64,000 nt of DNA from Anaerovorax odorimutans (GTDB taxonomy: Bacteria > Bacillota > Clostridia > Peptostreptococcales > JAAYPU01). The stretch is taken from positions 10,364 through 74,363 of the forward strand of contig JAENZQ010000001.1 in NCBI GenBank assembly GCA_016841185.1. Reading direction: 5' to 3'. The notes under the pieces were generated by a model. It saw only the letters and a list, made by a program, of their open reading frames with translations. It was not told the DNA's origin and made no database searches. This document shows positions 11,326-42,357 of the stretch, in pieces (position 1 is the first letter of the stretch; the number at the start of each line of letters is the position of its first letter). The translations under genes were made by a program, and so were the position numbers.

Positions 11326-11340
11326 GGTATTACCCCCTGC

Positions 11341-12162: not shown

Positions 12163-12166
12163 AACA

Positions 12167-14089: not shown

Positions 14090-14147
14090 GCGGTTCTCCT
14101 TTCCGCCCTATCGGAGATAGATAATCCATCACCGATAGGGCATTTGA

Positions 14148-14900: not shown

Positions 14901-15006
14901 GCTTTTATACCTCCGTAATTATGAATTTGGAATGTAATCTATATCATTGTTCTTTGAAACTTTGATCTTAGAACCGTATTTCGTGTACATTGCACTCTGA
15001 ACTTAT

Positions 15007-16920: not shown

Positions 16921-17023
16921 CTTATATCCTCCATCCTTCAATTTTGAGGGTTGGCCAACTCTCTGACTCAATGCTACTCGAATTGTTAAAGCCTGTCTGG
17001 ACATCTAAAGTCCATGTTTTGGG

Positions 17024-17092
17024 CAAAAAAATAGCCATTATGCAGTAAGGTTTTTGCGCCTTTTTTGCATAATGGCTTAAAATCTCATTATA
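17024..17092 (-). promoter_or_regulatory. TATAAT element followed by a long terminator-like hairpin plus U-run, upstream of the SNF2 operon
   Basis: Minus-strand TATAAT = plus 17087-17092, immediately followed by ATGAGATTTT (half of the 19-mer seen at 5571/5932). Hairpin GCCATTATGCA (17034-17044) / TGCATAATGGC (17067-17077), followed on the minus strand by UAUUUUUUU. Confidence 0.4.
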
Positions 17093-17110
17093 ATAGCCGG
17101 TTTAAAATAT

Positions 17111-17136
17111 AAAAAGTTGGACTTCCGAAGTCCAAC
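17111..17136 (-). terminator. Intrinsic terminator of the ImmA-like gene
   Basis: GTTGGACTT-CCG-AAGTCCAAC perfect 9-bp stem immediately after the stop codon, followed on the minus strand by UUUUU. T-run on the other side as well (bidirectional). Confidence 0.7.
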
Positions 17137-17142
17137 AATTTT

Positions 17143-19062: not shown

Positions 19063-19226
19063 ACCGTACCTCCCTAATAACATTTCATCATGCAGACCAG
19101 ATATTTCCTTATGTAAATTATAGCATAAATTGCGAAAAACACAATAATTAATTTGCGAACTCAAATTTTTGTTGTGTTTTAACCAGCTTTATGATATTCT
19201 TTATATTACAAGGCGAGGTGACAATT

Positions 19227-19442
19227 ATGGCCGTTAGCTATAAAAAACTATGGAAACTCTTAATTGATAAAGATATGAAAAAGAAAGATTTAAGAGAAGC
19301 GGCTGGTATTAGTACATCTTCTATGGCAAAACTCGGCAAAAACGAAAACGTAACTACTGATGTGCTTGTGAAGATTTGTAAGGCCTTAAAGTGTGATATT
19401 TCAGATATTATGGAGATTGAGCCGGATGACAAAGATAAATAG
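19227..19442 (+). CDS. Small XRE-family helix-turn-helix protein (71 aa)
   Basis: ATG at 19227 with GAGGTG 6 nt upstream. MAVSYKKLWKLLIDKDMKKKDLREAAGISTSSMAKLGKNENVTTDVLVKICKALKCDISDIMEI is a canonical Cro/C1-type HTH. Confidence 0.85.
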   Translation: MAVSYKKLWKLLIDKDMKKKDLREAAGISTSSMAKLGKNENVTTDVLVKICKALKCDISDIMEIEPDDKDK

Positions 19443-19479
19443 AGCTATGCTTATGTAAATACATAAAGGAGTGCGTATT

Positions 19480-22400: not shown

Positions 22401-22566
22401 TTTAGACGCATACTTCCGGCAGACGTTTGCCGATGCGCGTAGTTACAAGAAAATCTTTGTTAATTGCGACAATAACCTTCAGAACCTGCGCACAGAAAAC
22501 GAAAATTGGCGTGTTATCCTCATCGATGAGGAAATGAAAAAGCGCATATTTGAATACAGTGAGTAA
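19480..22566 (+). CDS. Type III Mod-like beta-class N6/N4 DNA methyltransferase with a long N-terminal extension (1028 aa)
   Basis: ATG at 19480 (AAAGGAG upstream). Motif IV IYIDPPYN (DPPY at 20899-20910) preceded by ..LLIHSENFQALQLL.., as in EcoP1I-type Mod. Motif I FAGSGTT at 21733-21753. About 470 residues precede DPPY. Confidence 0.85.
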   Translation: MTANQKKLINLLKEMFQFDQADLDFGIYRIMRMKREEISRFIEEDLPAQITNELRELVSVSAEVDMAEIDKQVTDAKSLNISETAKASIIAELEAKKKALAEKIDISSVEADVYNHLTNFFSRYYDEGDFISQRRYKDGAYAIPYEGEEVKLYWANADQYYIKTSEYFKDYTFKTAYGDTVRFKLVEAETEQDNNKANEKRFFQLHTEKPFELVDGIFTIYMEYKNGGKKNQDECIGEIVKAFSEAQARYTQFSALLATSDGKTLLERQLKRYTARNTFDYFIHKDLGKFLRRELDFYIKNDVIFLDDIDEQDEAKTKEYLTKAKVIRKIAHKIIAFLAQIENFQKKLYLKKKFVVETNYCITLDRIPEELYPEIAANDDQREEWVRLFAIDEIEGDLTQPTYSVPLTVEFLKANPYLVLDTAFFSAEFKDKLIAGVDNLDENLDGLLIHSENFQALQLLQTRYKGQIKCIYIDPPYNAKSSEILYKNNYKHSSWLSLMSDRIKASQTLFNDKPVFICAIDEVEQERLGILLSQLFNENYFGKTAVSIVHNPSGQQGDNFSYTHEFAYFIYNIPGRSIAEQLREDPNEWDKRNFRDVTGDESLRTAAKTCFYPILIKDGTIIGFGDVCNDDYHPEVNVFRDDGVIEVYPIDPQGIERKWRFGRDTVETIKDQLLVNYINNRKVYDIQRLKKTFNYKSCWHASIYSANNYGTQPLNQMFGYQPFSYPKSIFTVKDCIYAGLNEQKAATVLDFFAGSGTTAHAVINLNREDGGRRKYLLVEMGEYFDTVTKPRIQKVIYSMDTETQKGWRDGKPVSRKGSSHAFKYLRLESYEDTLNNIVLRGGQYDMLGSAREGYLLSYMLDAEAEGSSCLLNIDKLDKPFDYKMNITRNLESREQPVDLVETFNYLIGLTVARSYALTTFDAEFIIGEYGSVSATLKNGNTYKFKSVEGTLPNGDKALVIWREMTGDTVKDNAVLDAYFRQTFADARSYKKIFVNCDNNLQNLRTENENWRVILIDEEMKKRIFEYSE

Positions 22567-22578
22567 GGAGGCAGCATT

Positions 22579-25500
22579 ATGGCAAGAAGAAATAGGCAAC
22601 GTGCTAATGAGCCGCAATTAAAATTTTATCAAAAACTTCTGCTGAACCGCTACCTGCTCAGTCAGTTTAGTGTATCAAGTTTTAAAGAATTGGCTGCAGA
22701 ACTTAAGAAACCTGCCTTTGAAGAAATTGATAACGAAAGCGTTACCGGTTTTTACAAACAAATCGTTTCTCAACTCGGCACGAAATGCAAAATCCCTCAG
22801 GAAAAGCTGGCGGAATATGATTTGAATATAGTGGCCCATTTAAAGAAGATTAATGAAAGGCGGGATGAACCGCTTTCCCTCAAATACTTTCAATACCTCT
22901 CGCTGCTTTTTGTTGAGTACTACCTTGACAACTACTTCAATAACCGGCAAGGCTTACTTGACGGTCTAAATGAGCTTGTTGCCGATTTCAACGAGCAGTA
23001 CCTCAATGATGCAGTTGAGTTGTATGAAGAAAGTGACTTGAACAAAATTGCAATCTGGAACGCCACCGGTAGCGGCAAAACCCTGATAATGCACATTAAC
23101 TACCATCAGTACATTCATTATTCAAACTGTAAATTGCCGGACGGCGCTACATATATCCTTCTAACGCCAAAGGAAGGCTTATCCCTCCAGCATATTGAGG
23201 AATTTGAGGTATCTGGAATACCAGCTAAAATATATGATAAGTCAGCAAGCCGCTGGATGCGTTATGAAGGCGAAATTAGCGTTCTCGAGAATACAAAACT
23301 GGGAGAAAAGGATCAAGATACAATTGTATCTGTTAAGCGGTTTGGAAACCAGAATGTTGTTTTTGTGGATGAAGGCCACAGGGGGTCATCATCCGGTAAG
23401 GAAGGAAAATGGCAGAAATTTCGCGATGAGCTTTGCTCAGACGGTTTTTCGTTCGAATATTCCGCAACCTTTGGGCAGGCTATAGCTGCTTCCTCAGACA
23501 AATCACTTGCCAAACGTTACCAGAAGTGCATTATTTTTGATTATTCATACAAATACTTTTATCAAGACGGATATGGCAAAGACTATAACATCCTTAACCT
23601 TGCCAACGACAGCGATGAAGCAAAACGAAAGCTTTATCTGACAGCTTGCCTAATTGCGTTTTATCAACAAAAAAAGATATATTTGACATGCAAAAACGAA
23701 TTTGAACGCTTCAATATTGAAAATCCGCTGTTTGTTTTTGTCGGAGCTAGTGTAAATGCCGTCCGTACTGAGCGTGGACGCAAAGTTTCCGACGTTGTGG
23801 ATATCCTGCTGTTTTTCAAGGATTTTATTTCTAATACCAGTGAATCGGTTGCAAATATACAACAGTTACTATCCGGAAACACAGGATTGCTTGACAATCA
23901 TAATCGCGACATTTTTAGAAATGCTTTCCCATACTTGGAAAGCGAAGGGTTGTCCGCCGCTGATCTTTATAATGATGTTTTGAAAACAGTATTTAACTGT
24001 ACTTCCATTGGATCCATGCTCCATGTTGAGAATCTGCGCGGAATTAGCGGTGAAATTAGTTTACGTCTTGGCGAGAACGAACCCTTTGGTGTTATTAATG
24101 TCGGGGATGACAGTGCTTTATTAAAGCTATGTTCAGAAAACGGCTTCCATACAGATACCATATCATTCTCAGAGTCGCTGTTTCATAAAATCACAAAGCC
24201 GGATTCCACAATCAATATATTGATTGGCTCAAAAAAATTCACCGAGGGCTGGAACTGCTGGCGTGTATCGACAATGGGGCTTATGAATGTTGGCCGTAGC
24301 GAGGGAAGCGAAATTATTCAGCTTTTTGGACGAGGCGTACGTCTGAAAGGCTATTCACTGTCGCTGAAACGCAGCGCTTTTTATAAAAAGGAAAATCCAG
24401 AAATTTCTGTACCGAAGTATATAAGCATTTTGGAAACACTGAATATTTTCGGCGTCCGCGCTGATTATATGCATCAGTTTAAGGAATTCCTTGAAGCCGA
24501 AGGTGTTCCGCCCGAAAAAGGCCAACCGATAGTATTAACAATGCCGGTTATCCGGAACAAACTCTATAAAAAAGATAACCTGTACACATTGCGTGTCAAG
24601 GGCGGGCTTGATTATAGAAAGCATGCTAAAAAACCTTTTTTGAGATATGTTGAGGGTATCGTTGTTACGCTGGATTGTTATGCAAAGGTGCAGTTTGAAA
24701 CATCAAAAACACATTCATCAAGTGAGGTGACAAAAAATCAAACGACACTCAAACCCGAACATTTAGCTTTCCTAAACTATAATCGCATCTATTTCGAAAT
24801 ACTGCAGTATAAGAATAAAAAAGCGAGATACAATTTTAATATTAATAAAAATGATATATATGATTTGCTGAACAATCCTGAATATAACACCTCATGGTAC
24901 AAATTGCTCATTCCTGAAGATGAGCTGAAAATACGTAACTATGAAGACTACAGACGGTTTGAAAAGATAGCTGTTGCCTTGCTAATAAAATATTTCGACA
25001 GGCTCTATTACTTGGAGCGCAATCGCTGGGAATCGATGGTTGTTGGTTATGAGCTTGTCGCTATGAGTGATGAGGGTGATAATTTCCTGAACGAAGAAAA
25101 GGACGAATATACCATAAGCATCAGCAATACTGATGAAAATGAAGCCATGATTACCTGGCTTAAACGAATAATAGAAAAAGTAAATGAGGCGAAAGCGAAA
25201 AAACAAATCCTGGACTTTATTGAACAACGTGCTGACATGGAAGTTATCGGATTTCCAGCTCACTTATATGATCCTCTGCTTTATCTGGCAAAGAATAATG
25301 TGGAAATCGTTGTATCACCGGTGGCTTTAAACGAAAGCGAAGCAAAATTCATAAAAGATTTACGCCAACACCTTAAAGACAATGAAGCATTGTTTTCAGA
25401 TAAAGAACTTTACATTATCCGAAACAGGAGCAAAAAAGGAATTGGATTTTTTGAAGATAGCGGTTTTTATCCGGATTTCATTATGTGGCTTATTGTCAAT

Positions 25501-25779
25501 GGAAAACAATATATAACATTCATTGACCCACATGGTCTTAGGCAAGAAAGCATTACTTCAAGCAAAATCAGGCTGCACAAAAGCATTAAAACCAGTATTC
25601 AAAGCAAGCTTGCAGAACCATCGGTAGTGCTTAATTCCTTTATTTTGTCACCTACAAAATATGCAGAACTTCCGGACAGAAGTACCCCTAAAGCAGAGTG
25701 GATAGAAAATAATGTTCTTTTTATGGAGGACGTCAATTACATTCAGAGACTTTTTGACACAATTAAAAAACAAGCTTAG
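22579..25779 (+). CDS. Res-like SF2 helicase (ResIII/DEAH type) with C-terminal PD-(D/E)xK-like region (1066 aa)
   Basis: GGAGG RBS, 12 nt after the methyltransferase stop. Walker A ..NATGSGKT.. (23068-23082), motif II ..VFVDEGHRGSS.. (23368-23379), motif III SATFG, motif VI ..QLFGRGVRL... C-terminal ..GFYPDFIMW..(17 aa)..FIDPHG... Confidence 0.8.
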   Translation: MARRNRQRANEPQLKFYQKLLLNRYLLSQFSVSSFKELAAELKKPAFEEIDNESVTGFYKQIVSQLGTKCKIPQEKLAEYDLNIVAHLKKINERRDEPLSLKYFQYLSLLFVEYYLDNYFNNRQGLLDGLNELVADFNEQYLNDAVELYEESDLNKIAIWNATGSGKTLIMHINYHQYIHYSNCKLPDGATYILLTPKEGLSLQHIEEFEVSGIPAKIYDKSASRWMRYEGEISVLENTKLGEKDQDTIVSVKRFGNQNVVFVDEGHRGSSSGKEGKWQKFRDELCSDGFSFEYSATFGQAIAASSDKSLAKRYQKCIIFDYSYKYFYQDGYGKDYNILNLANDSDEAKRKLYLTACLIAFYQQKKIYLTCKNEFERFNIENPLFVFVGASVNAVRTERGRKVSDVVDILLFFKDFISNTSESVANIQQLLSGNTGLLDNHNRDIFRNAFPYLESEGLSAADLYNDVLKTVFNCTSIGSMLHVENLRGISGEISLRLGENEPFGVINVGDDSALLKLCSENGFHTDTISFSESLFHKITKPDSTINILIGSKKFTEGWNCWRVSTMGLMNVGRSEGSEIIQLFGRGVRLKGYSLSLKRSAFYKKENPEISVPKYISILETLNIFGVRADYMHQFKEFLEAEGVPPEKGQPIVLTMPVIRNKLYKKDNLYTLRVKGGLDYRKHAKKPFLRYVEGIVVTLDCYAKVQFETSKTHSSSEVTKNQTTLKPEHLAFLNYNRIYFEILQYKNKKARYNFNINKNDIYDLLNNPEYNTSWYKLLIPEDELKIRNYEDYRRFEKIAVALLIKYFDRLYYLERNRWESMVVGYELVAMSDEGDNFLNEEKDEYTISISNTDENEAMITWLKRIIEKVNEAKAKKQILDFIEQRADMEVIGFPAHLYDPLLYLAKNNVEIVVSPVALNESEAKFIKDLRQHLKDNEALFSDKELYIIRNRSKKGIGFFEDSGFYPDFIMWLIVNGKQYITFIDPHGLRQESITSSKIRLHKSIKTSIQSKLAEPSVVLNSFILSPTKYAELPDRSTPKAEWIENNVLFMEDVNYIQRLFDTIKKQA

Positions 25780-25781
25780 AA

Positions 25782-25826
25782 AGGCAGGCTGCTCATATAA
25801 TCATTTAGCTTGTCTTTGTTTTTCTG
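25782..25826 (+). terminator. Weak terminator-like hairpin after the helicase gene
   Basis: AGGCAGGCU-16 nt-AGCUUGUCU (9 bp including two G-U pairs that only work on the plus-strand RNA), followed by UUGUUUUUCUG. The long loop lowers confidence. Confidence 0.35.
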
Positions 25827-25891
25827 TATTAGGCTGTTGTTAATTTTTTTAACGGCTAAGTCTCTGCTAAATGATAGAAGGGGGGGTTATT

Positions 25892-27106
25892 ATGTATCAG
25901 TTAACAATTGAAGACATAGAGCGCAGTAATAGCCTTGCACTTCAACCGGGTCGAACTGCTTTTATTGATGAGTGCGGGAACTTCGGATTTGACTTTGAAG
26001 CTAAGGGAACTTCTGAAGCAGGTGGCCCTTCGCTCTATTATATTGTTTGCGCCGTTGTTGTAAAAAACGAGAATATTAGTGCTCTTGAAATTGAAGCTAA
26101 TAAAATTCGCCAAAATAATGGTTTTCAAACCGGAGAAATGAAATCTAGCTTAATAGGCAATAACCATAAGCGTAGAATAAAGATACTCACTGAATTGCTA
26201 AATCTTGATTTTTCACTGGTTATGCTTATTGCAGATAAACAAAAATTTTATAGGGATTCGCCTCTTACTAATTATAGGGAGTCATTCATAAAGTACCTTC
26301 ATCAAAAACTGTATAATGAAATGTACGCGGCATATCCAAAACTTAAAATCGTTGAGGATGAATATGGATTATCAGAGTTTCAAAAGGGGTATCGTGAATA
26401 TGTTTGTGCTAACAGACCACAACTAAACCTACTTAACGAATATGATTTTGATTATGTCAACAGTAAACATAGTCCGATAGTACAAATTGCAGATATTATT
26501 GCAGGTTCAACCATGCAGCACCTTTTAGACAATAAGGCTCCAAATGTCTTGAAAATATTCCAAGGCAAAATTAGGGGGCTTGTCAATTTTCCAAGCACAT
26601 ATTCTTCCTTCCTTGCAGGAATTAAGGCAGATAAAAGCTTTGACGAAAATATATATGTGTTAGCCGACCATTGTGCAACTCAATATATAGACTCTCATAT
26701 AGATACCGATGAAACAGATACAAGGATGCGTGTTTTGTTCTTAAAGCATTTGCTATGGGTAGTTCGTAATATTAATCCCCGTAAATATATTTCATCGGGC
26801 GAAATTATCAAGGTTCTATCCGACCTTTCTGATAGTAAGGTTCGTCGTGACTATTTATACCGAAGAATAATTGCTCCTTTGCGCGATGCTGGCGTAATTA
26901 TAGCCAGTTGTTCTCATGGCTATAAAATACCTACGTGTATTGATGATATCTATACGTATGTAAACCAAACAAATGGCATTGTTGGCCCTATGCTCAATCG
27001 TGTTGAAAAATGCAGACAACTTATTCTTTCTCAAACTGACGGTTCTCTTGATATTTTTGACGATCCTGCCCTAAAAAAATACAAGCGTTATTTCGGAGAT
27101 TATTAA
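25892..27106 (+). CDS. DUF3800 domain protein with winged-helix-like C-terminal region (404 aa)
   Basis: ATG at 25892 (GGGGGG 7 nt upstream). N-terminal ..TAFIDECGNFGF.. and later ..VQIADIIAGS.. match the two conserved DUF3800 motifs as I remember them. The C-terminus ..SSGEIIKVLSDLSDSKVRRDYLYRRIIAPLRDAGVIIASCSHGYKIP.. looks like a wHTH. Confidence 0.7.
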   Translation: MYQLTIEDIERSNSLALQPGRTAFIDECGNFGFDFEAKGTSEAGGPSLYYIVCAVVVKNENISALEIEANKIRQNNGFQTGEMKSSLIGNNHKRRIKILTELLNLDFSLVMLIADKQKFYRDSPLTNYRESFIKYLHQKLYNEMYAAYPKLKIVEDEYGLSEFQKGYREYVCANRPQLNLLNEYDFDYVNSKHSPIVQIADIIAGSTMQHLLDNKAPNVLKIFQGKIRGLVNFPSTYSSFLAGIKADKSFDENIYVLADHCATQYIDSHIDTDETDTRMRVLFLKHLLWVVRNINPRKYISSGEIIKVLSDLSDSKVRRDYLYRRIIAPLRDAGVIIASCSHGYKIPTCIDDIYTYVNQTNGIVGPMLNRVEKCRQLILSQTDGSLDIFDDPALKKYKRYFGDY

Positions 27107-33665: not shown

Positions 33666-35159
33666 TTAAGCGGTTACAGTTTGCTGTTCTCTAAGTATTC
33701 TTTTGAGTATTTTTCCGGTACTGTTTTTAGGAAGTTCCGAAATAAATTCTACTTTGCGTGGTATTTTATAACCGGCAATGTGTTTTTTCAGGTAATCAAA
33801 TATTTCCTTGGATGTACATTCCTCACCATCTTTGATGACAATAAACGCTTTAGCATATTCCCCTCTCAACTTATCGTCTATCCCTACGACTGCAGCTTCT
33901 TTTACTTTGGGGTGGCGATATATGGCTTCCTCGACTTCCCTTGGATATACATTAAGGCCTCCTACAATAATCAGGTCTTTCTTCCTGTCAACAATATATA
34001 GGTATCCGTCTTCGTCCTTTTTTGCCAAATCACCGGTATACAACCATCCGTTCTTTAATGTTTCTTTTGTCGCTTTCTCCGACTTGAAATATCCTAACAT
34101 AACATTCTCACCACGTACGATAAGTTCTCCTACTTCTCCAACAGGCAATTCTACACCATTTTCATTGACAATTTTACAGTCAACATTTGAAACCGGAAGC
34201 CCGATAGAACCTTCTTTCTTTACTCCGTCTAAAGGGTTAAAGGAAACTATTGGAGATGCTTCCGTCAAGCCGTATCCTTCAACTATGGAGAGGTTTAAAT
34301 TGTTTTTAGCTTTCCGTAGTATTTCTACAGGAAGTGCAGCCCCACCTGAAACAGCCAACCGTAGCTTAGGAAATTTTATGTCGTTCTTGCATGCTTCTAA
34401 TAATATTACATACATAGTCGGAACACCCATAAAAACCGTAATGCCGTCCTGTATTAAAGATTCTATCACTTCTTTAGGCTGAAATTTTTCTAATATTGTG
34501 ATTGTAGCACCGCTTAGAAGCGGGGCCAGAACACAAGTTGTAAATGCAAAAACATGAAACATTGGAAGTACACACATAACATTGTCACTTGCAGTCATTT
34601 GGAATGCAATCCTGCCCTGTTCAGCATTAACAACAAGATTTTTATGCGTCAACATGGCAGCTTTTTGTTTTCCTGTAGTTCCTGAAGTATATAAAAATGT
34701 AGATATTCCATTCTCATCTTTAAATTCTTCAGATACTTCTATCGGCATATTCGAAATAGCTTTCCGGAACTCATCTTCAAGAACAATAACCTTAATGCCT
34801 GTAAGTTCTTGAATTGATTCTCTTGAAAGTTCCATTTTCTGAATAATTGCAGGGTGAATAATCATATGGCTTGCTTCTGAATCCTTTACCAGATAGATAA
34901 TCTCTTCCATCGTAAGCTGCAAATTGATTGGTATTATCACCGCAGCATTTTTCACCACGCCCAGATAGGAATAAATAAACTCAGGAGAATTTGGGCAGCT
35001 TAATATCACTCGTTTACCTGTCTTAATCCCTAATTTTTTTAAATACTTCGCATATCGGTTGACATTTTCATCAAACTGTTGATAAGTAATGCTGTCTTTC
35101 TTAAACTTTATTGCAATAGAATCTGCATCAAAAGACTTTTTGTAAATATTGCCTACCAT
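33666..35159 (-). CDS. AMP-dependent acyl-CoA synthetase/ligase (long-chain-fatty-acid-CoA ligase-like)
   Basis: ATG at 35159 (GGAGG 5 nt upstream). AMP-binding motif ..LYTSGTTGKQKAAMLTH.., ..YGLTEAS.., ..GDLAKKDEDGYLYIVDRKKD... Confidence 0.85.
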   Translation of the reverse strand: MVGNIYKKSFDADSIAIKFKKDSITYQQFDENVNRYAKYLKKLGIKTGKRVILSCPNSPEFIYSYLGVVKNAAVIIPINLQLTMEEIIYLVKDSEASHMIIHPAIIQKMELSRESIQELTGIKVIVLEDEFRKAISNMPIEVSEEFKDENGISTFLYTSGTTGKQKAAMLTHKNLVVNAEQGRIAFQMTASDNVMCVLPMFHVFAFTTCVLAPLLSGATITILEKFQPKEVIESLIQDGITVFMGVPTMYVILLEACKNDIKFPKLRLAVSGGAALPVEILRKAKNNLNLSIVEGYGLTEASPIVSFNPLDGVKKEGSIGLPVSNVDCKIVNENGVELPVGEVGELIVRGENVMLGYFKSEKATKETLKNGWLYTGDLAKKDEDGYLYIVDRKKDLIIVGGLNVYPREVEEAIYRHPKVKEAAVVGIDDKLRGEYAKAFIVIKDGEECTSKEIFDYLKKHIAGYKIPRKVEFISELPKNSTGKILKRILREQQTVTA

Positions 35160-35374
35160 ATTTACCTCCAAAATCATCCATATTTATTTGTTTTAGGTTT
35201 GATTTGCTTTTTCTTCTTTGATTGTACCATAATTTGTATATATTGGTACAAAAAAATAACTGTATATCCAAAAATACACAGCTATTTTCATATTAACAAT
35301 ATATTATTTACCATACTCTTTAATAAATACTTTGATGTAAGCAGTTTGCCTAATGCTTAATCCTTATATTCAAA

Positions 35375-37228
35375 CTATCTAACCAAAAACGATTTTATTC
35401 TAACAATCCTTTTTACAATATCTTCAATGGGATTTATTTTAACAAAATTAAAAATGGCATCTCCATCTGCTCTATTCTTACAAGACAATAAAACTGATAA
35501 TTTATCACTTTTTGCTTCTTTCTTGTATCTCATAAAATCATCCGAATAATATCTTTTATACCGCCAGGAAACAACTATTTTATTTTCAGGTTGTATATAT
35601 ATATTATTGGATAACTCTAAATTCTCAAATCCATTCCATCTGGGTGATAAGTAAAAACTCATTTCCTCAGCATTTAAAAAAATATTATTTCTAATTACTA
35701 TTTTTGATGATATTTCCGACGTGCTGTCAAAAAGACATAAGTGTATTCCTCCTGTATCGTCTGTTCTCTGCTCACTTCCCCATCCAAATCCTGCATTTTT
35801 ACAGGTATTACCTTCAAAATATATTTTGCCCATAATAGAAGTTTCGTTATGCAGCCAAAATTCAAAGGACCACTGTGAATTCCATATCTGGTTATTCCTG
35901 AAGGAAATATTATATTGTTTGTTATTATTTCCAATGCCTTGTATGGTTACTGCACTGTCATATATTTGCCATATATAGCAACCTTCCACCAAGTTATCAT
36001 GTGCATTATTCCAAAACTCTATGCCATTTCCATATCTTGTTTGCTCTCTAAGTTTTCCCCCTCCAATAAAACTTATATCACAGTTAAGAATATTTATGTG
36101 GTGTGTATTCCCTCCGCCTATTCCATGAGCACTGCCATATTTCAATGCCAATCCATCGTAAGTAATATAGGCTCTGTCTATTTGCTGGATAATATTTTTA
36201 GTTAAGGCACATTCGATTGTAGAATACAGTTTTCCCGGATTGTCTAAAGAATACATTCGAACATTATGACTTTCTTCATCATAATAAAACTCATTCTGCT
36301 CATCCAATTCTTCGGGACTAAAAATCTTAGTTCCAAATATTTCTCCGTCGTTAAATATTATGTTCCCAACATCCTCATATACCTCCAGAGGATCCGCTTC
36401 AAAAAAACGTATGTGATCTATGTATAATTCTGCCCCTGATGGTAGATCCTTGCCTAAATACATTGTAACCCGAGCATTATCATCACTGACATTTGCTTGA
36501 TATGACACCCTGTAATAAGACCATTCCGTTGAAATTACAGGAAATGCATCCGTATAAGTTGAAGAACAGTCAGTCCATGGAAAATTGTCCTTCATCAAAA
36601 TAACAAAAGGGATTTTAAAAGTTATGTTGGATTTCGCTCTGAAAGAAAAAGTATAATTTTTCCCGTTTTTGATTTTAAGTCCTTTCAAAGACACCATAAT
36701 ATCATAGATAGATTCACCTGCATTATCACATTTTATCCTGATACATTTTTTTCCCTGTTCATTATTTAACACATTATAACTTGAATCAACACCTTCTTCT
36801 TTCCAAAAAGAAACATTATCCGCCGGAATGGTTGGAATGCTCCATAAATCATATTCTTTAGTGGAAAATGACCATATGTTATGGCCGACTTCTTTCCAAT
36901 GATCAACATAACTTCGATCAACAGACCCCAAAAAAAGTGGTTTATTGCCAAAACCATATGATGTATAGGTAATGCTTCCATTTTCATTCCCACTCCTTGG
37001 AACCAGCTGCTCTCTCCATACATCTCCTTTTTTAAAGTGAATAACATCACCTGGTTTAAAATTAAAATTATTTACCTTGGATATTGTCCGCCAAGGTGAA
37101 TATTCAGATAGGCCCGAATTATTATCATCTCCTGAATTGCTTACATAATAATCCTGAGCATATATGACCATTGTGTTTATTAAAAGGAATAGAAATACTG
37201 CTAGAAAAGAGAAAAAGAATTTTTTCAT
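35375..37228 (-). CDS. Secreted right-handed beta-helix (pectate-lyase-fold) protein with inserted carbohydrate-binding-like module (617 aa)
   Basis: ATG at 37228 (AAGGAG upstream) gives a signal peptide MKKFFFSFLAVFLFLLINTMVIYA. YYVSNSGDDNNSG..PW..PGDVIHFKKGDVW is typical of beta-helix proteins. Paralogous to 38514-39845 but with an extra roughly 170-aa segment (..FSFRAKSN..VTMYLGKDLPSGAELYIDHIRFFEA..) resembling a CBM4/9-type module. Confidence 0.6.
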   Translation of the reverse strand: MKKFFFSFLAVFLFLLINTMVIYAQDYYVSNSGDDNNSGLSEYSPWRTISKVNNFNFKPGDVIHFKKGDVWREQLVPRSGNENGSITYTSYGFGNKPLFLGSVDRSYVDHWKEVGHNIWSFSTKEYDLWSIPTIPADNVSFWKEEGVDSSYNVLNNEQGKKCIRIKCDNAGESIYDIMVSLKGLKIKNGKNYTFSFRAKSNITFKIPFVILMKDNFPWTDCSSTYTDAFPVISTEWSYYRVSYQANVSDDNARVTMYLGKDLPSGAELYIDHIRFFEADPLEVYEDVGNIIFNDGEIFGTKIFSPEELDEQNEFYYDEESHNVRMYSLDNPGKLYSTIECALTKNIIQQIDRAYITYDGLALKYGSAHGIGGGNTHHINILNCDISFIGGGKLREQTRYGNGIEFWNNAHDNLVEGCYIWQIYDSAVTIQGIGNNNKQYNISFRNNQIWNSQWSFEFWLHNETSIMGKIYFEGNTCKNAGFGWGSEQRTDDTGGIHLCLFDSTSEISSKIVIRNNIFLNAEEMSFYLSPRWNGFENLELSNNIYIQPENKIVVSWRYKRYYSDDFMRYKKEAKSDKLSVLLSCKNRADGDAIFNFVKINPIEDIVKRIVRIKSFLVR

Positions 37229-37403
37229 CAATAATTTCTCCTTATTGTAAAAATAACAGAAAAATAACTGGGCTATTAGTTTGATTCTATCAGTTCTTAT
37301 TGATCTTATCAACTATAGGTATTAAAAGAAGCTTGATAAGTTATAAACTTATTGATACCATAATGGTAGTATAAATTTCAATGTGATTAAAGGAAAAACA
37401 AGT

Positions 37404-38453
37404 ATGTCAATTAATAAAAAGATTTTAAAATTTTTAATTTTGAAAATTATTGGCTCTTTATTATTTTTCTCTGGCTTATATTTTATCCTAAACAAATTAT
37501 TTACGAATAAAGGAATATATATTTTAATGTATCACAGAATACAGGATAAAGGTGATGATTTTTATTATCAGGATATTGCTGTTAAACGAAAGGAATTCGA
37601 GAAGCAGCTTTCTTATTTTACAAATAATTATTGTTGCATTACTATGTCCGAAGCTTTATCTATCCTTTCAAAAAATACTGAACTCGATAAGGATTATATC
37701 GTTTTTACCTTTGACGACGGTTATAAAGATAATTTGGACTATGGTCAATATTTTTTCAGAAAATACCACATATGTCCTGTTTTATATCTAACTGCGGGAA
37801 AAATAGACAGCCGTCTGCCCATCTGGACAGAAATTTTTGATGAAATTATTGCGAATTCCAACAGTTTACAATTGGAAATAGCTATAAAAGACAGCATGAT
37901 CAAATGCCACTCCAACAGTATTAGAAAAAGAACAGAATTCGCAGAAGAAGTTAAATCTGCTTTAAAAGAAATGCCTCAACAATATATAATGAATTGCCTC
38001 AATGATTTTGCAAAAAAATATCATATCGATACCAATAAAATCAATACAACGTTGCTATCCTGGTCCGATATTATGGAACTCAGTAAATCCGGCTGCGAAT
38101 TAGGAAGCCATACAATGAATCATGTCAATCTTGCCGCCGAACCAATGTCAACTGTAGCAGAAGAACTTGAAAAATCATGTGCTCTTATAGAAGAAAAAAC
38201 CTATTATAAATCAGTACATTTCGCTTATCCTTTTGGAAAACCAAATCATTATAATGATTTGGCAGTAAAAAAAGTTCAGGATTATTACAAATCAGCAGTA
38301 ACTACAACAGAAGGCTTAAACAAATGCAAAGACAATGTATATCTTCTTCGTAGGATTATGATAGCAAATCACCATAGTCTGATCGATATCAGAATAAAGC
38401 TTCTACGTATAAAGATACTGGACTTCTTAAATGGAAATAACAAGCATGCATAA
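37404..38453 (+). CDS. Polysaccharide deacetylase (NodB homology domain) with N-terminal membrane anchor
   Basis: ..YIVFTFDDGYKDN.. (NodB motif 1) and ..GSHTMNHVNL.. (His motif). Start at ATG 37404, or the GTG at 37383 given in the track. Confidence 0.8.
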   Translation: MSINKKILKFLILKIIGSLLFFSGLYFILNKLFTNKGIYILMYHRIQDKGDDFYYQDIAVKRKEFEKQLSYFTNNYCCITMSEALSILSKNTELDKDYIVFTFDDGYKDNLDYGQYFFRKYHICPVLYLTAGKIDSRLPIWTEIFDEIIANSNSLQLEIAIKDSMIKCHSNSIRKRTEFAEEVKSALKEMPQQYIMNCLNDFAKKYHIDTNKINTTLLSWSDIMELSKSGCELGSHTMNHVNLAAEPMSTVAEELEKSCALIEEKTYYKSVHFAYPFGKPNHYNDLAVKKVQDYYKSAVTTTEGLNKCKDNVYLLRRIMIANHHSLIDIRIKLLRIKILDFLNGNNKHA

Positions 38454-38457
38454 AAAA

Positions 38458-38485
38458 CGCATAAACTGAATTAACAGTTTATGCG
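38458..38485 (-). terminator. Intrinsic terminator of the riboswitch-controlled beta-helix gene
   Basis: CGCATAAACTG-AATTAA-CAGTTTATGCG 11-bp stem. A-run on the plus side (38452-57) gives a U-run on the minus transcript. Confidence 0.6.
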
Positions 38486-38513
38486 CTATCTCTCTATAAA
38501 AATGTCTAAAAAA

Positions 38514-39845
38514 TTATTTCATGGCCACAACAACATCTGAACTTCTGTATTGCATTTCCGAATCACTATCTTTTCCTGTTTCGCTTTTATATTTATCAAA
38601 TTCATAAGAAAAATACAATTCACCATCGACATAACTGAAAAACTTATCTTTTTGCTGTACATATGTATTATTTTCAAGAATCAAATTTTCCGAGTCATTC
38701 CAGTTATCGGATAAAAAGAATATTCCTTCTGTTGCATTATCGAAAGTATTATTGGAAATATATATATCGGATGCCTTTGCCAAACTGCTGAAAAAACTCA
38801 AATGTCTTCCGCCAACTTGATCTGTCCTTTGATTGCTTCCCCATCCCAAGCCGGCATTTCTGCAAACATTGTTTTCAAAATATATATCTCTTAAAGCCGC
38901 ATTTTCATTTTGATACCAGAGCTCGAAAGACCATTGTGCATTCCATATTTTATTGTTTCTATAGACAATATTATATTGATCAAACCCGGAGCGTGCACCT
39001 TGATTCGTTAAAGCCGTATCGTATATTTCCCAAATGTTGCAACCTTCTACTAAAATATCATGAGCATCACTCCAAAATTCTATGCCATTGCCATATCGGT
39101 CAATTTCACCATTAAAGATGAATTTTCCTCCTCCTATGTAATTTACATCACAATTCAATACTTTTATATGATGTGTGCTGTCACCGCCGATACCATGTGC
39201 TCCGCCATATTTTATTTCCAATCCGTCATAAATAACGTAAGATTTATCATTTTGATTGATTATATGTTGAGACAATGCACATTCAATTTCATCATATATT
39301 TCAGCCGGATTTTTTAAGGAATATATCTTCAGAATTTTGTTACTTTCGTCATACCAAAAATCATTCTGCTTTCTGAGTTCAGATTCATTAAATACTTTAA
39401 CACCGCAGATATCTCCATCAAATATGATATTTCCTACATCCTCTGGAAATTTAAACGGTTTATTAATTTCGGCTTCATAGACCATCCAAATATTTTTTTC
39501 CTGCTGCACCCAATTATTTACATTATTCATACTGACCGAACCCAGTATTTGAGGTTTTCTTCCCTCTCCATAAGAAGTATATGTAACAAACCCGCTTTCA
39601 TCTCCACTTGACGGAATTAACTGCCCTCTCCAAAGATCGCCTTTATTAAAATGGATCGTATCGCCTGGTTCAAAATCTTTACTGTTTACTTTTTCAAGAG
39701 TCTTCCAGGGGCTATCCGGAGATGTTCCTGAATTTAGATCATCACCTGCATTACTGACATAATATTGGTCAGCATATGAATAATTAAAAGCTAAAATCAA
39801 AAAAAATGCAGATAATATTAAAGAAAACAAAAAAGTCCTTTTCAT
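38514..39845 (-). CDS. Secreted right-handed beta-helix (pectate-lyase-fold) protein, 443 aa
   Basis: Signal peptide MKRTFLFSLILSAFFLILAFNYSYA. ..YYVSNAGDDLNSG..PW..PGDTIHFNKGDLW.. and repeated N/G-rich beta-helix turns. Preceded by riboswitch-like aptamers. Confidence 0.6.
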   Translation of the reverse strand: MKRTFLFSLILSAFFLILAFNYSYADQYYVSNAGDDLNSGTSPDSPWKTLEKVNSKDFEPGDTIHFNKGDLWRGQLIPSSGDESGFVTYTSYGEGRKPQILGSVSMNNVNNWVQQEKNIWMVYEAEINKPFKFPEDVGNIIFDGDICGVKVFNESELRKQNDFWYDESNKILKIYSLKNPAEIYDEIECALSQHIINQNDKSYVIYDGLEIKYGGAHGIGGDSTHHIKVLNCDVNYIGGGKFIFNGEIDRYGNGIEFWSDAHDILVEGCNIWEIYDTALTNQGARSGFDQYNIVYRNNKIWNAQWSFELWYQNENAALRDIYFENNVCRNAGLGWGSNQRTDQVGGRHLSFFSSLAKASDIYISNNTFDNATEGIFFLSDNWNDSENLILENNTYVQQKDKFFSYVDGELYFSYEFDKYKSETGKDSDSEMQYRSSDVVVAMK

Positions 39846-39859
39846 TTTAATTTACTCTC

Positions 39860-39945
39860 CTTCGATGGCTGGCTACCTTAGCTGATCGCCTTAGGCCCTT
39901 TAGCTTTGCGCCCTTACCTTTCGGCAAGTTTGCCTTTATCGTGAG
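39860..39945 (-). promoter_or_regulatory. c-di-GMP-I (GEMM-I) riboswitch-like aptamer, copy A (its 3' end abuts the RBS of the 443-aa gene)
   Basis: Minus-strand RNA: CGAUAAAGGCAAACUUGCCGAAAGGUAAGGGCGCAAAGCUAAAGGGCCUAAGGCGAUCAGCUAAGGUAGCCAGCCAUCGAAGGAGAG. It shares the GGCAAAC / GNRA-capped hairpin / G(A/G)CGCAAAGC / GGCCUAA / GGUAGCC signature with the Vc2 and Clostridial GEMM-I aptamers I remember. Confidence 0.8.
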
Positions 39946-39981
39946 ATATTAATTGAAAGACTTTCTACAAATAAACTTTCC

Positions 39982-40071
39982 CTTCGGTTACTGGCTGCCT
40001 TAGCTTATCGCCTTAGGCCCTTTAGTTTTGCGCCCTTACCTTTCGATAAGTTTGCCTTTATCGGTAAAAAG
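39982..40071 (-). promoter_or_regulatory. c-di-GMP-I (GEMM-I) riboswitch-like aptamer, copy B
   Basis: Minus-strand RNA: ..ACCGAUAAAGGCAAACUUAUCGAAAGGUAAGGGCGCAAAACUAAAGGGCCUAAGGCGAUAAGCUAAGGCAGCCAGUAACCGAAG. The P1a hairpin is kept by changes relative to copy A (UUGCC/GGUAA versus UUAUC/GGUAA). Confidence 0.8.
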
Positions 40072-40129
40072 TTCTTACAATAATATCTACATATATCCTT
40101 GGTTGTCCTACAATCATTTATTACTTAAA

Positions 40130-40210
40130 TCAATGTGCATGTACAACAGTAAAGCTGAGTAATACAATAAATAGAAATAAGACACCAGATAATATTAAAT
40201 TTCTTTTCAT
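40130..40210 (-). CDS. 26-codon sORF encoding a signal-peptide-like peptide (MKRNLILSGVLFLFIVLLSFTVVHAH)
   Basis: My own translation. ATG at 40210 with GGAGG 8 nt upstream, TGA at 40130-40132. It lies between the two riboswitch pairs and resembles the signal peptides of the two beta-helix paralogues. Confidence 0.35.
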   Translation of the reverse strand: MKRNLILSGVLFLFIVLLSFTVVHAH

Positions 40211-40301
40211 TACAGATATCCTCCATATCCTTAATTGCTTATATTATCTATTTCTGCCTTATATTTTATGCTTTTGTTCATGTAAATATAAAAAATCTTT
40301 T

Positions 40302-40388
40302 CTTCAGCAACCGGCTGCCTTAGCATATGCTTTAGGCCCTTAGCTTTGCGTCCTTACTTTTCAGTAAGTTTGCCTTTATTGGTAAAAG
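40302..40388 (-). promoter_or_regulatory. c-di-GMP-I (GEMM-I) riboswitch-like aptamer, copy C
   Basis: Minus-strand RNA: CUUUUACCAAUAAAGGCAAACUUACUGAAAAGUAAGGACGCAAAGCUAAGGGCCUAAAGCAUAUGCUAAGGCAGCCGGUUGCUGAAG. Contains the GGACGCAAAGC core identical to the canonical consensus. Confidence 0.8.
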
Positions 40389-40413
40389 ATTTTAAGGATA
40401 AAAAAAACTTTTT

Positions 40414-40500
40414 CTTCGGTAGCCGGCTGCCCTGGCTTATGCTTTAGGCCCTTAGCTTTGCGCCCTTACTTTTCAGTAAGTTTGCCTTTATCGGTAAAAG
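40414..40500 (-). promoter_or_regulatory. c-di-GMP-I (GEMM-I) riboswitch-like aptamer, copy D (promoter-proximal)
   Basis: Minus-strand RNA: CUUUUACCGAUAAAGGCAAACUUACUGAAAAGUAAGGGCGCAAAGCUAAGGGCCUAAAGCAUAAGCCAGGGCAGCCGGCUACCGAAG. It starts about 10-20 nt downstream of the predicted promoter. Confidence 0.8.
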
Positions 40501-40518
40501 TATAGTATGTGTAGTAAT

Positions 40519-40547
40519 ATTATAGTACAAGTATACATCAATGACAA
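40519..40547 (-). promoter_or_regulatory. Strong sigma-70-type promoter driving the riboswitch array
   Basis: Minus strand: TTGTCA (plus 40542-40547), 17-nt spacer, TATAAT (plus 40519-40524). Confidence 0.6.
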
Positions 40548-40577
40548 GGGTTTTTTACATTTTTTTCATTTATTCTC

Positions 40578-41177
40578 TTATTTTTTTAGAAAATTAATAT
40601 CTACCAGTTGGGCTCCGGGGATAATAAACCCTTCGGAGCCTTCTGAACTGATTTTTTTTGCAGGATTACCAGCAATCGTAATGTTTTCTTCAATAAAAGA
40701 TTTAGTCACTATTGCACCTGTTCCGACTGCCGTTCCATCAGCAATCTTAATTGAGCCAAATAGTTTTGCCCCCGGCCCAATGTACACATTATCACCTATT
40801 ACAGGAGATTCATACGGGGGTTTTTTATCCGGTGCGATACTTACACATGAATGAATCCTGCAGTTTCTGCCGATCCGCACTTTCGGACCTATTATTATAG
40901 GTCCTCTGTGCGCAATGCTCAGGCCGGGACCGCATACATTAAAAGGTATTTCAAAGCCGAGCATAAGTGCATATTTATGAAATATAAAACGATATAAAAA
41001 ATATAATATCTTTGAACACAAACTCTTTTTACAGTTCATATAGTATTCTATTTTTCTTAATAATCTCTGATACTTCCATATTTCATCACCAAAAAATAAA
41101 GGTCTTTTCTTTTCTTTGCCAAGCGCAATTCTATCTGCTTCTAAATAAAACAAATAATCTTTATAGGATTTTATCAT
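40578..41177 (-). CDS. Hexapeptide-repeat O-acetyltransferase (serine acetyltransferase-like, EPS-modifying)
   Basis: 199 aa. Left-handed beta-helix repeats ..IGRNCRIHSCVSI..IGDNVYIGPGAKLFGSIKIADGTAVGTGAIV... Confidence 0.75.
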   Translation of the reverse strand: MIKSYKDYLFYLEADRIALGKEKKRPLFFGDEIWKYQRLLRKIEYYMNCKKSLCSKILYFLYRFIFHKYALMLGFEIPFNVCGPGLSIAHRGPIIIGPKVRIGRNCRIHSCVSIAPDKKPPYESPVIGDNVYIGPGAKLFGSIKIADGTAVGTGAIVTKSFIEENITIAGNPAKKISSEGSEGFIIPGAQLVDINFLKK

Positions 41178-41187
41178 ACAAACACCC

Positions 41188-42357
41188 TCACTTCATATGT
41201 TCATTGTGCTGCATATCTAAAAATAAGCTTTCATACTCTTTTGATACTTTTTCCCATCCATACTGTTCTTCTATTCTTTTTTTGCAGTTTGTTGAAAGCA
41301 TCATTATCTCTTCAGAATCAAGCTTCTCGGCTTTTTCTATTATTTCTCTGAGAGATCCTTCTTTTTTATTGAAATACAGAACTGCCTTTTTCCCAACTTC
41401 TTTATTAAAAACAACATCTAATAATATATTTATCTTTGTAGCCGCCATGGCTTCCAGTAAAGATGGGTTCGTACCGCCCACCTCATGCCCGTGAATATAG
41501 GCATAAGCTTCTTGTCTAATTTGCTTTAACAACGCTTTATCATATACTGTCCCTACAAATTTTATTCTCTTATCTTGTTTGAAATTTGTATGATCATATA
41601 AAAGTTTGTAAAAATTGTTTTTTTCTAAATTACATATAATCACCAGGTCTCTTTGTGTATCGGAAGCCATAAATTCTCGTATCATTATTTCATAATTATT
41701 TTCAGGAACAAAACGGCCAACTATAAGATAATAACTGTTTGGTAAAACAGAATGTGCTTCACACCATTTTCTATAATCAGCGGAAATACTCATATTATCA
41801 ATGTCTGCACCATAAGGAATAAATATCGTCTCAGGAGAATAGTAAAAATATTCTTCCTTTATATATGCCTCTATAGCATTTGAATCACAAATAAGAAGAT
41901 CTGAATGTTTGACCATTAACTTCTCAGAATATTTCCAATATCTTTGTATCCATTTATTCCATTTACTTCTTAGCCATTCATGTCCGTCCGGATTAACATA
42001 TACTTTTATATTTAGTGCTTTGATTTTATGACTGAATAAAAACATAAATGGCCCAATTCGGCAAGCCAGAACATAAATAATACTATTCTGCAATTTATGT
42101 TTTTCAATATATTTAATACATCTGCTTAAACTTTTAAGATCATAGAAAACAGCACGGGCACTTCCAATTTGGGGCACCTTTACATTAAAGCATCTATCAT
42201 TTTTATACCGAAATTCTGTGTTGTCATCTCCCAGACAAGCAATATGATATCTTATCATAGAGCTTTTCTTTTTTCTTACTAAACAGTCAACAAAAGTTTC
42301 AAATCCTCCATAGTTTGCAGGTATCCCTTTTGAACCAATAATAAAAATATCTACCAT
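41188..42357 (-). CDS. Glycosyltransferase with DUF1972-type N-terminus (Cps2T/WchF-like, possibly a rhamnosyltransferase)
   Basis: N-terminus MVDIFIIGSKGIPANYGGFETFVDCLV is characteristic of DUF1972 GT4 enzymes. C-terminus ..HGHEVGGTNPSLLEAMA... Confidence 0.7.
   Translation of the reverse strand: MVDIFIIGSKGIPANYGGFETFVDCLVRKKKSSMIRYHIACLGDDNTEFRYKNDRCFNVKVPQIGSARAVFYDLKSLSRCIKYIEKHKLQNSIIYVLACRIGPFMFLFSHKIKALNIKVYVNPDGHEWLRSKWNKWIQRYWKYSEKLMVKHSDLLICDSNAIEAYIKEEYFYYSPETIFIPYGADIDNMSISADYRKWCEAHSVLPNSYYLIVGRFVPENNYEIMIREFMASDTQRDLVIICNLEKNNFYKLLYDHTNFKQDKRIKFVGTVYDKALLKQIRQEAYAYIHGHEVGGTNPSLLEAMAATKINILLDVVFNKEVGKKAVLYFNKKEGSLREIIEKAEKLDSEEIMMLSTNCKKRIEEQYGWEKVSKEYESLFLDMQHNEHMK

Follow-up and report, generated by a model that had tools for sequence, protein, structure and literature searches.

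Introduction

The usual natural illustration of a dose-response made sharper by RNA alone is the tandem riboswitch. The subject of this report is such a series in Anaerovorax odorimutans, where four aptamers for cyclic di-GMP (c-di-GMP) of class I, known as c-di-GMP-I or GEMM-I (Rfam family RF01051), are found in the leader of a gene coding for a 443-amino-acid (443-aa) secreted beta-helix protein. The DNA analysed, referred to as the window, is a stretch of 64,000 nucleotides (nt) from the forward strand of GenBank assembly GCA_016841185.1 (contig JAENZQ010000001.1, positions 10,364 to 74,363); coordinates below are positions within it, unless a locus of another genome is named.

Among described systems, the characterised triple tandem is Bc3-5 of Bacillus thuringiensis, in which serial, complete class I riboswitches of similar sequence occupy one 5' untranslated region upstream of genes for secreted or surface proteins, an arrangement expected to provide more stringent, digital control (Zhou et al. 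2016, PMC4759541). Each of its three units possesses a separate terminator hairpin that competes with helices P1 and P3, so that the design is an ON switch. A survey of tandem riboswitches by Sherlock et al. (2022, PMC9481103) identified c-di-GMP-I as the class with most tandem cases, comprising 347 doublets and 12 triplets, with no quadruplet, and a tandem survey from 2025 lists doubles and triples only. In Clostridioides difficile, class I riboswitches (Cd1, Cdi-1-3; PMC6200980, PMC9262584) act as OFF switches with individual thresholds (PMC6200980); Cd1 is a single aptamer followed by a classical antiterminator/terminator platform.

The array of the window resembles Bc3-5 in its serial, complete and mutually similar aptamers, its single leader and its secreted target, and differs from it in having four units, in a closing helix that abuts a run of U residues (predicted OFF), in a last unit predicted to act on the ribosome-binding site (RBS), and in being split by a pseudogene stub. 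It repeats one class in tandem, as do the 'pseudo-cooperative' arrangements of Sherlock et al.; its predicted mixture of termination (three units) and translation (one unit) corresponds to what those authors call 'bi-mechanism', which they give for SAM-II/SAM-V and not for c-di-GMP-I (PMC9481103). With the C. difficile riboswitches it has in common a Clostridia-type host, the class, and an OFF polarity that is predicted here, while its units lack the platform seen downstream of Cd1.

Four complete aptamers in one leader

The preliminary description of this DNA, made from its letters without database searches, had proposed four tandem GEMM-I aptamers behind a near-consensus promoter, two of them before a tiny open reading frame (ORF) and two abutting the 443-aa gene. 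The series and its 2+2 layout were recovered when the whole 64-kb window was scanned with the covariance models of Rfam 15 at gathering thresholds (35 bits for RF01051): Infernal gave four strong matches at those places (70-79 bits), all on the minus strand, and RF01051 was the sole Rfam family matched anywhere in the window. Each match spans the full model (1-87), with E-values from 1e-11 to 6e-14 (Table 1). A laxer scan of positions 35000-41500 (E up to 5) revealed no further or degenerate copies. The starts of successive aptamers are 112, 318 and 122 nt apart, and the aptamers lie within 636 nt of the same strand between promoter and start codon, where the only intervening ORF is a stub of 26 codons; the ATG of the 443-aa ORF follows 16 nt after the end of aptamer 4.

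The four copies are 77-90% identical to each other and, when aligned to RF01051, all carry a GAAA-capped P2, receptor elements of the CCUAA...UAAGG type in P3, a G at the position known as G20 and an A at that known as A47, with CGCAAA and AAAGGCAAAC read in every copy. Two of the GEMM-I motifs originally assigned to each unit are not shared by all copies: aptamer 3 has CGCAAAAC, and aptamer 2 ends in CUGAAG. The variant c-di-GMP-I-GGC (RF03167), whose consensus CGCGAA has a G in place of A47, scores below RF01051 at all four sites, and both this variant and the GEMM-Ib type that recognizes cyclic GMP-AMP (cGAMP) are ruled out by the presence of A47 and G20 in all copies.

Compensatory changes are seen in P1, P2 and P3 among the copies of the window and their relatives. 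The P2 stems CUUACU/AGUAAG, CUUAUC/GGUAAG and CUUGCC/GGUAAG occur as initially quoted, and pair 6 of this helix is U-A in aptamers 1 and 2 versus C-G in aptamers 3 and 4. One pair of the P1 core is A-U in aptamer 2 (CCAAU...CUGAAG) versus G-C in the other three, and one pair of P3 is A-U in aptamer 3 versus G-C elsewhere. Judged from sequence, the array is thus a set of four complete c-di-GMP-I aptamers, each kept foldable by compensatory change.

The promoter-like site TTGTCA-17-TATAAT matches consensus at 11 of 12 positions and is the best, and only strong, site of its kind between 39500 and 40900, with a predicted transcript start near 40512. One promoter driving all four units, as first proposed, is plausible, with two reservations: a weak site lies before aptamer 3 (see below), and from the stop codon (40578) of the hexapeptide-transferase gene upstream as far as the promoter the scan detected no terminator-like site, so that read-through from the polysaccharide operon into the array is also possible.

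Closing helices and putative expression platforms

In all four units, the minimum free energy (MFE) fold extends P1 by a further helix, which pairs the strand 5' of the aptamer with the nucleotides that follow it. In riboswitches 2 and 3 the extension is present in both the MFE and the centroid structures, while in riboswitch 1 it is found in the former and absent from the latter. In the first three units the helix runs into a U-rich stretch, which in riboswitch 2 is UUAUAUUU (U6AUAUUU). The gap between aptamer and U-run measures only 6-10 nt, and the sole complement of its purine-rich sequence is the strand 5' of the aptamer. In riboswitch 4 the 3' end of the aptamer runs into the RBS, as had been noticed at the outset: the GAGA that pairs with the anti-Shine-Dalgarno (anti-SD) strand lies inside the Shine-Dalgarno (SD) sequence GGAGAG (39860-39855), with the ATG 11 nt further on, and a CGAU/AUCG pairing is added in the MFE fold.

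Out of 1000 shuffled sequences per unit, 290, 9, 51 and 319 did as well as the P1 extension of aptamers 1, 2, 3 and 4, respectively; the extension is thus significant for aptamer 2 only and borderline for aptamer 3. Since these single-unit tests go only partly beyond chance, support for the extension comes from the alignment across genomes. RNAalifold was applied to seven terminator-type units from five genomes, namely aptamers 1-3 of the window and units from loci L127, L125, L084 and L049 (the latter two from Acetobacterium); it independently predicts the closing helix, with double changes in four of its eight pairs, and also displays the G-C to A-U change of the P1 core (pair 18/96), while the U-run starts in the next column in every sequence. 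At least five U residues directly follow the helix in all 11 non-terminal or terminator-type units examined (aptamers 1-3 of the window, L127_a, L124_a, L125_a, L084_b, L049_a and three in L014). Locus L014, an Erysipelotrichaceae triplet, retains this placement of the U-run with unlike helix sequences (AGAAC/GUUCU and GAACA/UGUUC). Closing helix and U-run together do not make up a terminator of the classical kind.

Duplex predictions reveal that, in the window as well as in L127, L124, L125, L084 and L049, an anti-SD/SD pairing encloses the aptamer nearest to the gene, with sequences that vary among loci (UCUC/GAGA, AUAUCUUC/GGGAGAUAU, AUCUC/GGGAU, UAUUC/GAAUA). RNAalifold did not recover this helix from six gene-proximal units, between whose lineages the pairing register differs.

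The merging of an aptamer and an intrinsic terminator into one compact structure recalls the HMP-PP (thiS) riboswitch, reportedly described by Atilho and colleagues in 2019, in which a tiny aptamer is said to lie inside the terminator stem, with the ligand preventing termination. The window would differ in that a full-size three-way-junction aptamer serves as the 'loop' of the terminator, and in that the ligand is predicted to promote termination.

Table 1. Elements of the array, the gene it precedes, and genes of a distant island in the window
Feature	Position	Strand	Details
Promoter-like site	40519..40547	-	-35 TTGTCA 40547-40542, 17-nt spacer, -10 TATAAT 40524-40519
Aptamer 1	40496-40415	-	RF01051, 76.5 bits, E 2.8e-13
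Riboswitch 1, terminator type	40400..40501	-	P1 extension ACUUUU (40501-40496)/AAAAGU (40412-40407), into U8 (40407-40400)
Aptamer 2	40384-40303	-	RF01051, 79.4 bits, E 5.6e-14
Riboswitch 2, terminator type	40284..40393	-	10-bp P1 extension AAAAUCUUUU (40393-40384)/AAAAGAUUUU (40301-40292)
RBS and 26-codon ORF	RBS 40224-40220; ORF 40210-40130	-	GGAGG 9 nt upstream of ATG; ORF MKRNLILSGVLFLFIVLLSFTVVHAH
Aptamer 3	40066-39983	-	RF01051, 70.3 bits, E 9.6e-12
Riboswitch 3, terminator type	39969..40073	-	P1 extension AACUUUUU (40073-40066)/GGGAAAGUU (39982-39974), then UUUAUUU (39975-39969)
Aptamer 4	39944-39861	-	RF01051, 69.7 bits, E 1.3e-11
Riboswitch 4, RBS-masking type	39843..39946	-	anti-SD UCUC (39946-39943)/GAGA (39859-39856); start codon 39845-39843
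443-aa secreted beta-helix gene	38514..39845	-	signal peptide; AlphaFold2 model
NrS-1-type primase-polymerase	8348-10903		mobile-element-like island
PolA-like exonuclease/polymerase	12167-14089		mobile-element-like island
SNF2 helicase	15413-16771		mobile-element-like island
N6/N4 DNA methylase	19471-22566		mobile-element-like island
ResIII/SNF2 helicase	22579-25779		mobile-element-like island

Proposed mechanism and polarity

Ligand binding stabilises P1 in the c-di-GMP-I class. In the mechanism proposed here, c-di-GMP would stabilise P1 and hence its extension. In units 1-3 the ligand-bound aptamer would then become the loop of the hairpin of its own intrinsic terminator, bringing transcription to a stop, and in unit 4 the bound state would clamp the RBS, thus blocking translation. 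The array would amount to a series of four OFF switches, of which three would act on transcription and one on translation, with the gene being made only at low c-di-GMP; serial OFF switches would multiply their read-through fractions, and repression would be tighter and steeper than with one or two. This logic has been demonstrated by experiment for tandem riboswitches, in which additional copies provide more digital control (PMC4759541; PMC9481103). We assign the OFF polarity a probability of about 0.6; it is deduced from the anatomy of the units alone, where the closing helix is the only structure that the stabilisation of P1 can favour, and it is the weakest step of the mechanism.

A number of points weigh against this scheme. 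Thermodynamic folding yields the P1 extension without any ligand term, so that switching would have to be kinetic; the A/U-rich extensions of aptamers 1 and 4, taken alone, are no better than composition-matched shuffles; a weak promoter-like site (AGGACA-18-TATTAT, 9 of 12 consensus matches, 40109..40080) precedes aptamer 3; and no published c-di-GMP-I aptamer acting as the loop of its own terminator was found in the literature. In addition, in L124, L127 and L125, which carry homologues of the 443-aa gene, the doublet of aptamers also precedes genes for a deacetylase and a glycosyltransferase. The usual expectation is that c-di-GMP turns matrix production on, and repression of polysaccharide synthesis by this ligand runs counter to it. 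Finally, both the Bc3-5 triplet and an uninterrupted quadruplet found at locus L118 (see below) are ON designs.

These last observations also favour the opposite polarity, in which the same four aptamers would turn the gene on in the presence of c-di-GMP through a terminating or RBS-masking fold of the ligand-free RNA that has escaped recognition: the one characterised triple tandem is ON, the terminators of L118 overlap the 3' strands of P3 and P1 in the classic ON manner, and the doublet of the relatives heads polysaccharide-synthesis genes, which are usually induced by c-di-GMP. We consider this polarity unlikely. The 6-10 nt that precede the U-run leave neither room nor sequence for a separate terminator, a simple scan for hairpins followed by U-runs detected none on the minus strand of the array, and a ligand-stabilised P1 can favour only the closing helix and the anti-SD/SD clamp.

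Proposed origin of the 2+2 layout

The small ORF that splits the array is present as initially described; it is best read, however, as a stub, comprising the signal peptide, of a paralogue of the 443-aa gene that has decayed, and not as a designed spacer. It encodes a signal peptide only (KR, a hydrophobic core, VHA, one residue, stop), which, when aligned without gaps to that of the 443-aa protein, scores 45, versus 27.8 +/- 3.8 for shuffled sequences, with none of 300 shuffles reaching 45. Beyond its stop codon, the DNA still runs collinear with full-length genes at their 5' ends, with the reading frame shifted by 2 nt. A 51-aa stub at L127 (MKKNIILS...DDYYMSS) is 46% identical to it over 24 aa (E 2e-06), and the DDYYMSS of that stub corresponds to the start of the mature beta-helix protein. 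The idea that the 80-nt spacer separating aptamer 2 from the stub (AAAGCAUAAAAUAUAAGGCAG) contains a decayed third aptamer was rejected, the candidate being no better than shuffles and unseen by Rfam at E up to 5; a marginal DNA match of this spacer to the YYVSNSGD-coding part of a 645-aa paralogue (14 of 500 shuffles were as good) was not used.

A c-di-GMP-I doublet, consisting of a terminator-type unit followed by an RBS-masking one, precedes homologues that are approximately 50% identical to the 443-aa protein on the metagenomic contigs L125, L127 and L124, the last of these loci being cut by the contig end. The recurrence of one design before three such homologues suggests that aptamers 3 and 4 represent the ancestral control unit of the gene family. 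L127 (JGI 3300004761 Ga0068270_10027) carries, at 1-244 of its plus strand, a degenerate RBS-type aptamer (score 53 vs 15.4 +/- 2.3) and the 51-codon stub, followed by an intact doublet and a full-length gene, and would thus display the same stacked-leader layout at a later stage of decay. The quadruplet is most simply explained by two stacked leaders: a neighbouring paralogue would have lost its coding region, while its two aptamers stayed upstream of the surviving gene. That aptamers 1 and 2 are intact here, while their counterpart in L127 has decayed, suggests that they are still under selection.

The same evidence can be turned into the claim that aptamers 3 and 4 alone matter, with aptamers 1 and 2 and the stub being either a leftover that would merely lower basal read-through, or a separate short transcription unit, with the gene transcribed mainly from a second promoter before aptamer 3. 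In its favour, the doublet by itself is the conserved unit in L124, L125 and L127, the two pairs are separated by an ORF that is a pseudogene stub, the upstream counterpart in L127 is visibly degenerate, and the 9/12 site lies before aptamer 3. This claim, too, appears improbable. The two upstream aptamers have the highest RF01051 scores of the four, and are thus not decaying; aptamer 2 combines the compensatory G-C to A-U change in P1 with a closing helix of 10 perfect base pairs, which speaks for ongoing selection. Sites of the 9/12 type number six, as compared to 4.0 +/- 2.2 expected, and are therefore no better than chance. A duplicated promoter before aptamer 3 is not supported, the sequences upstream of aptamers 1 and 3 being devoid of promoter homology, and the terminator scan revealed no terminator between the stub and aptamer 3.

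Ligand contacts of the gene-proximal aptamers

At the ligand contacts G20, A47 and C92, aptamers 1-3 carry G, A and C, and aptamer 4 carries G, A and U. The substitution, U39865, falls on position 83 of the RF01051 model, where the model has C; the residue concerned is the first of the 3' CC and, as assigned via Cd1, the counterpart of C87 in Cd1 and C92 in Vc2, which form a Watson-Crick pair with the ligand (PMC6200980, PMC9262584). In Vc2, the C92U change strongly weakens the response without abolishing it, and the RNA still responds under cyclase overexpression (bioRxiv 10.1101/617340). By analogy, the U at the ligand-pairing position indicates that the c-di-GMP threshold of aptamer 4 probably differs from those of the others, being weaker or shifted.

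A stronger form of this argument holds that the array is a multi-ligand or multi-threshold device, in which aptamers 1-3 would sense c-di-GMP with high affinity and aptamer 4 (G20, A47, U92) would sense another cyclic dinucleotide, for instance 3'3'-cGAMP, or c-di-GMP only at much higher levels. Besides the replacement of the pairing C, it could call upon the relatives, whose gene-proximal aptamers vary at the contacts (A20/C92 in L127_b, A20/U92 in L124_b) while the distal ones all keep G20/C92; upon the observation that A at G20 marks a preference for cGAMP (PMC9481103); and upon the engineered G20A/C92U Vc2, which binds cyclic di-AMP (c-di-AMP; PMC7288161). However, Vc2 with C92U remains responsive to c-di-GMP when a cyclase is overexpressed and a G-U wobble can replace the G-C pair; by direct sequence reading, the aptamers of L118 appear to carry U there too, which would suggest a common, tolerated variant; and L127_b and L124_b are 94% identical and hence not independent. 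Such a device thus seems decidedly unlikely. So does the idea of a natural two-input or two-threshold gate in Clostridia, built on an undescribed platform of the 'aptamer as its own terminator loop' type, in which three high-affinity, kinetic terminator-type aptamers would be combined with a gene-proximal, RBS-clamping aptamer whose pocket has been retuned (U at C92 here, A at G20 in relatives) to 3'3'-cGAMP or to far higher levels of c-di-GMP.

It is of note that L127_b (L127, 1-535, plus strand) has A at G20, and that L124_b (L124, 76-160, plus strand) has A at G20 together with U at C92, the combination by which engineered Vc2 binds c-di-AMP (PMC7288161); by analogy, these two aptamers may be natural specificity or threshold variants.

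A repeat family, or matches arising by chance, would find support only in the nature of the units as direct repeats of 77-90% identity; this suggestion has next to no probability and is refuted by the strength and full model coverage of the Rfam matches on a single strand of a 5' leader, by the compensatory changes and the covariation among the seven units, and by the conserved, homologous doublets that precede homologous genes elsewhere.

Other arrays

The preliminary description considered four aptamers in one leader to be unusual and mentioned a triple tandem from B. thuringiensis, which is real (PMC4759541). The published surveys bear out this rarity; uniqueness is another matter, since further series of four turned up in public genomes. 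Genome contigs were scanned with the pattern AAAGGCAAAC-N(95-125)-AAAGGCAAAC, which provides existence proofs and no frequency, and whose matches were mostly unrelated Collinsella sequence. Among the matches listed, approximately 10 loci contained real arrays (including L118, L084, L027, L011, L052 and L014), among them one uninterrupted quadruplet, one 3+1 series, one 2+2 series and three triplets. A scan of metagenomes with a specific aptamer pattern yielded only three single aptamers with classical terminators. The Collinsella matches, which make up most of loci L002-L120 and occur in dozens of genomes with a fixed span of 142 nt for AAAGGCAAAC-N-AAAGGCAAAC, lack the GEMM-I core motif and presumably have nothing to do with riboswitches, representing a conserved gene or repeat.

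The uninterrupted quadruplet, L118 (3425-3876, plus strand; Acholeplasmataceae metagenome-assembled genome (MAG) JAIOQX010000003), consists of four consecutive RF01051 aptamers (57-65 bits) approximately 125 nt apart, each with a classic terminator that overlaps the 3' strands of the aptamer, behind a promoter-like TTGACA; the genes downstream code for TasA/camelysin-like proteins and a SipW-like signal peptidase. The tandem surveys cited above make no mention of this quadruplet. It shares with the window the four aptamers, the single leader, the promoter-like site and the matrix-type genes downstream, and differs from it in its lack of interruption, its ON terminators and the identity of its targets. 

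L084 (783-2704, minus strand), from Acetobacterium wieringae, is a 3+1 series of c-di-GMP-I aptamers, the first of which is degenerate (40 bits). Both L084 and L049 (Acetobacterium sp.) follow the design in which a closing helix and U-run are succeeded by an RBS-masking aptamer, and an array of this type lies before the gene of a secreted protein of 528 aa, in which a Thr/Pro-rich linker is combined with a beta-helix resembling pectate-lyase-3; this is a second, unrelated beta-helix family under like control. At L027 (1234-1453 and 3360-3577, plus strand), the 2+2 series from an Anaerolineales MAG, aptamers form pairs approximately 12 nt apart, with the pair being repeated 2 kb downstream; unlike the independent units seen elsewhere, there is a single terminator after the second aptamer of the pair, and L027 may combine two aptamers with one shared expression platform.

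Four-aptamer arrays thus exist in public genomes and appear to be undescribed, and what sets the array of the window apart is its predicted OFF polarity, its mixed control of termination and translation, and its composite origin.

The 443-aa gene and the polysaccharide locus

The 443-aa protein has no match in Pfam or NCBIfam. Its AlphaFold2 model is a right-handed beta-helix (predicted local distance difference test (pLDDT) score 93.4, predicted TM-score (pTM) 0.90), for which Foldseek returned GH120 XylC, GH136, GH110 and BT_1002, as well as a rhamnogalacturonan lyase and Klebsiella capsule depolymerases, with E-values down to 2e-11; in sequence, the N-terminal 75 aa resemble GH136 lacto-N-biosidases. 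On the strength of the model, the protein is probably a glycoside hydrolase or polysaccharide lyase that acts on the polysaccharide of the locus. The next gene downstream is convergent, and the array would therefore control the 443-aa gene alone, as a monocistronic unit. No close orthologue was found, the best non-self matches being 50-54% identical.

The gene lies at the 3' end of a polysaccharide locus of the Wzx/Wzy type on the minus strand (approximately 40.6-56.7 kb) that comprises a flippase, a Wzy-like polymerase, several GT4 enzymes, a DUF1972 glycosyltransferase, an aminotransferase, a UDP-sugar dehydrogenase and a hexapeptide acyltransferase, and its homologues sit in similar polysaccharide clusters elsewhere. 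As a hypothesis, it would be biologically sensible for the cell to trim or degrade its own polysaccharide by means of a secreted enzyme produced only at low c-di-GMP.

The 645-aa paralogue (35375-37312, minus strand) carries a CBM_4_9 carbohydrate-binding insert, and the laxer Rfam scan of 35000-41500 revealed no riboswitch or remnant before it. A polysaccharide deacetylase gene (37383-38453, plus strand) lies between both paralogues on the opposite strand; in the relatives, the deacetylase gene is found 3' of the beta-helix gene, on the same strand.

A mobile-element-like island

A further region of the window (8348-27106, both strands) has the appearance of a mobile-element-like island and, besides the genes listed in Table 1, codes for a DUF3800 protein. 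Proteins annotated in Defluviitalea, Desulforamulus, Acetivibrio, Christensenellales, Bacteroidales and Methanobacterium share 96-98% identity with the PolA-like protein of the island; identity of this order in distant taxa implies, as far as sequence can tell, a very recent spread of the gene across phyla, and possibly across domains. As part of a promiscuous mobile element, this gene is no guide to the taxonomy of the window; the RlmD-like gene points loosely to Peptostreptococcales, with 57-60% identity to named members of that order, and is 92% identical to a metagenomic protein.

Concluding remarks

The c-di-GMP-I literature ends at three copies. A natural four-copy array with a mixed mechanism, and probably with mixed thresholds, would allow the steepening and staging expected of serial switches to be tested directly. 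The established picture of c-di-GMP riboswitches is unchanged by these observations, to which the window and its relatives contribute a compact platform in which the closing helix of the aptamer, together with the U-run, seems to be the terminator. They also suggest that higher-order arrays can arise through the stacking of sensor leaders when one of two tandem paralogues decays. If the proposed mechanism is true, low c-di-GMP would be linked to a secreted beta-helix carbohydrate-active enzyme, which would fit the remodelling of matrix or capsule at dispersal.

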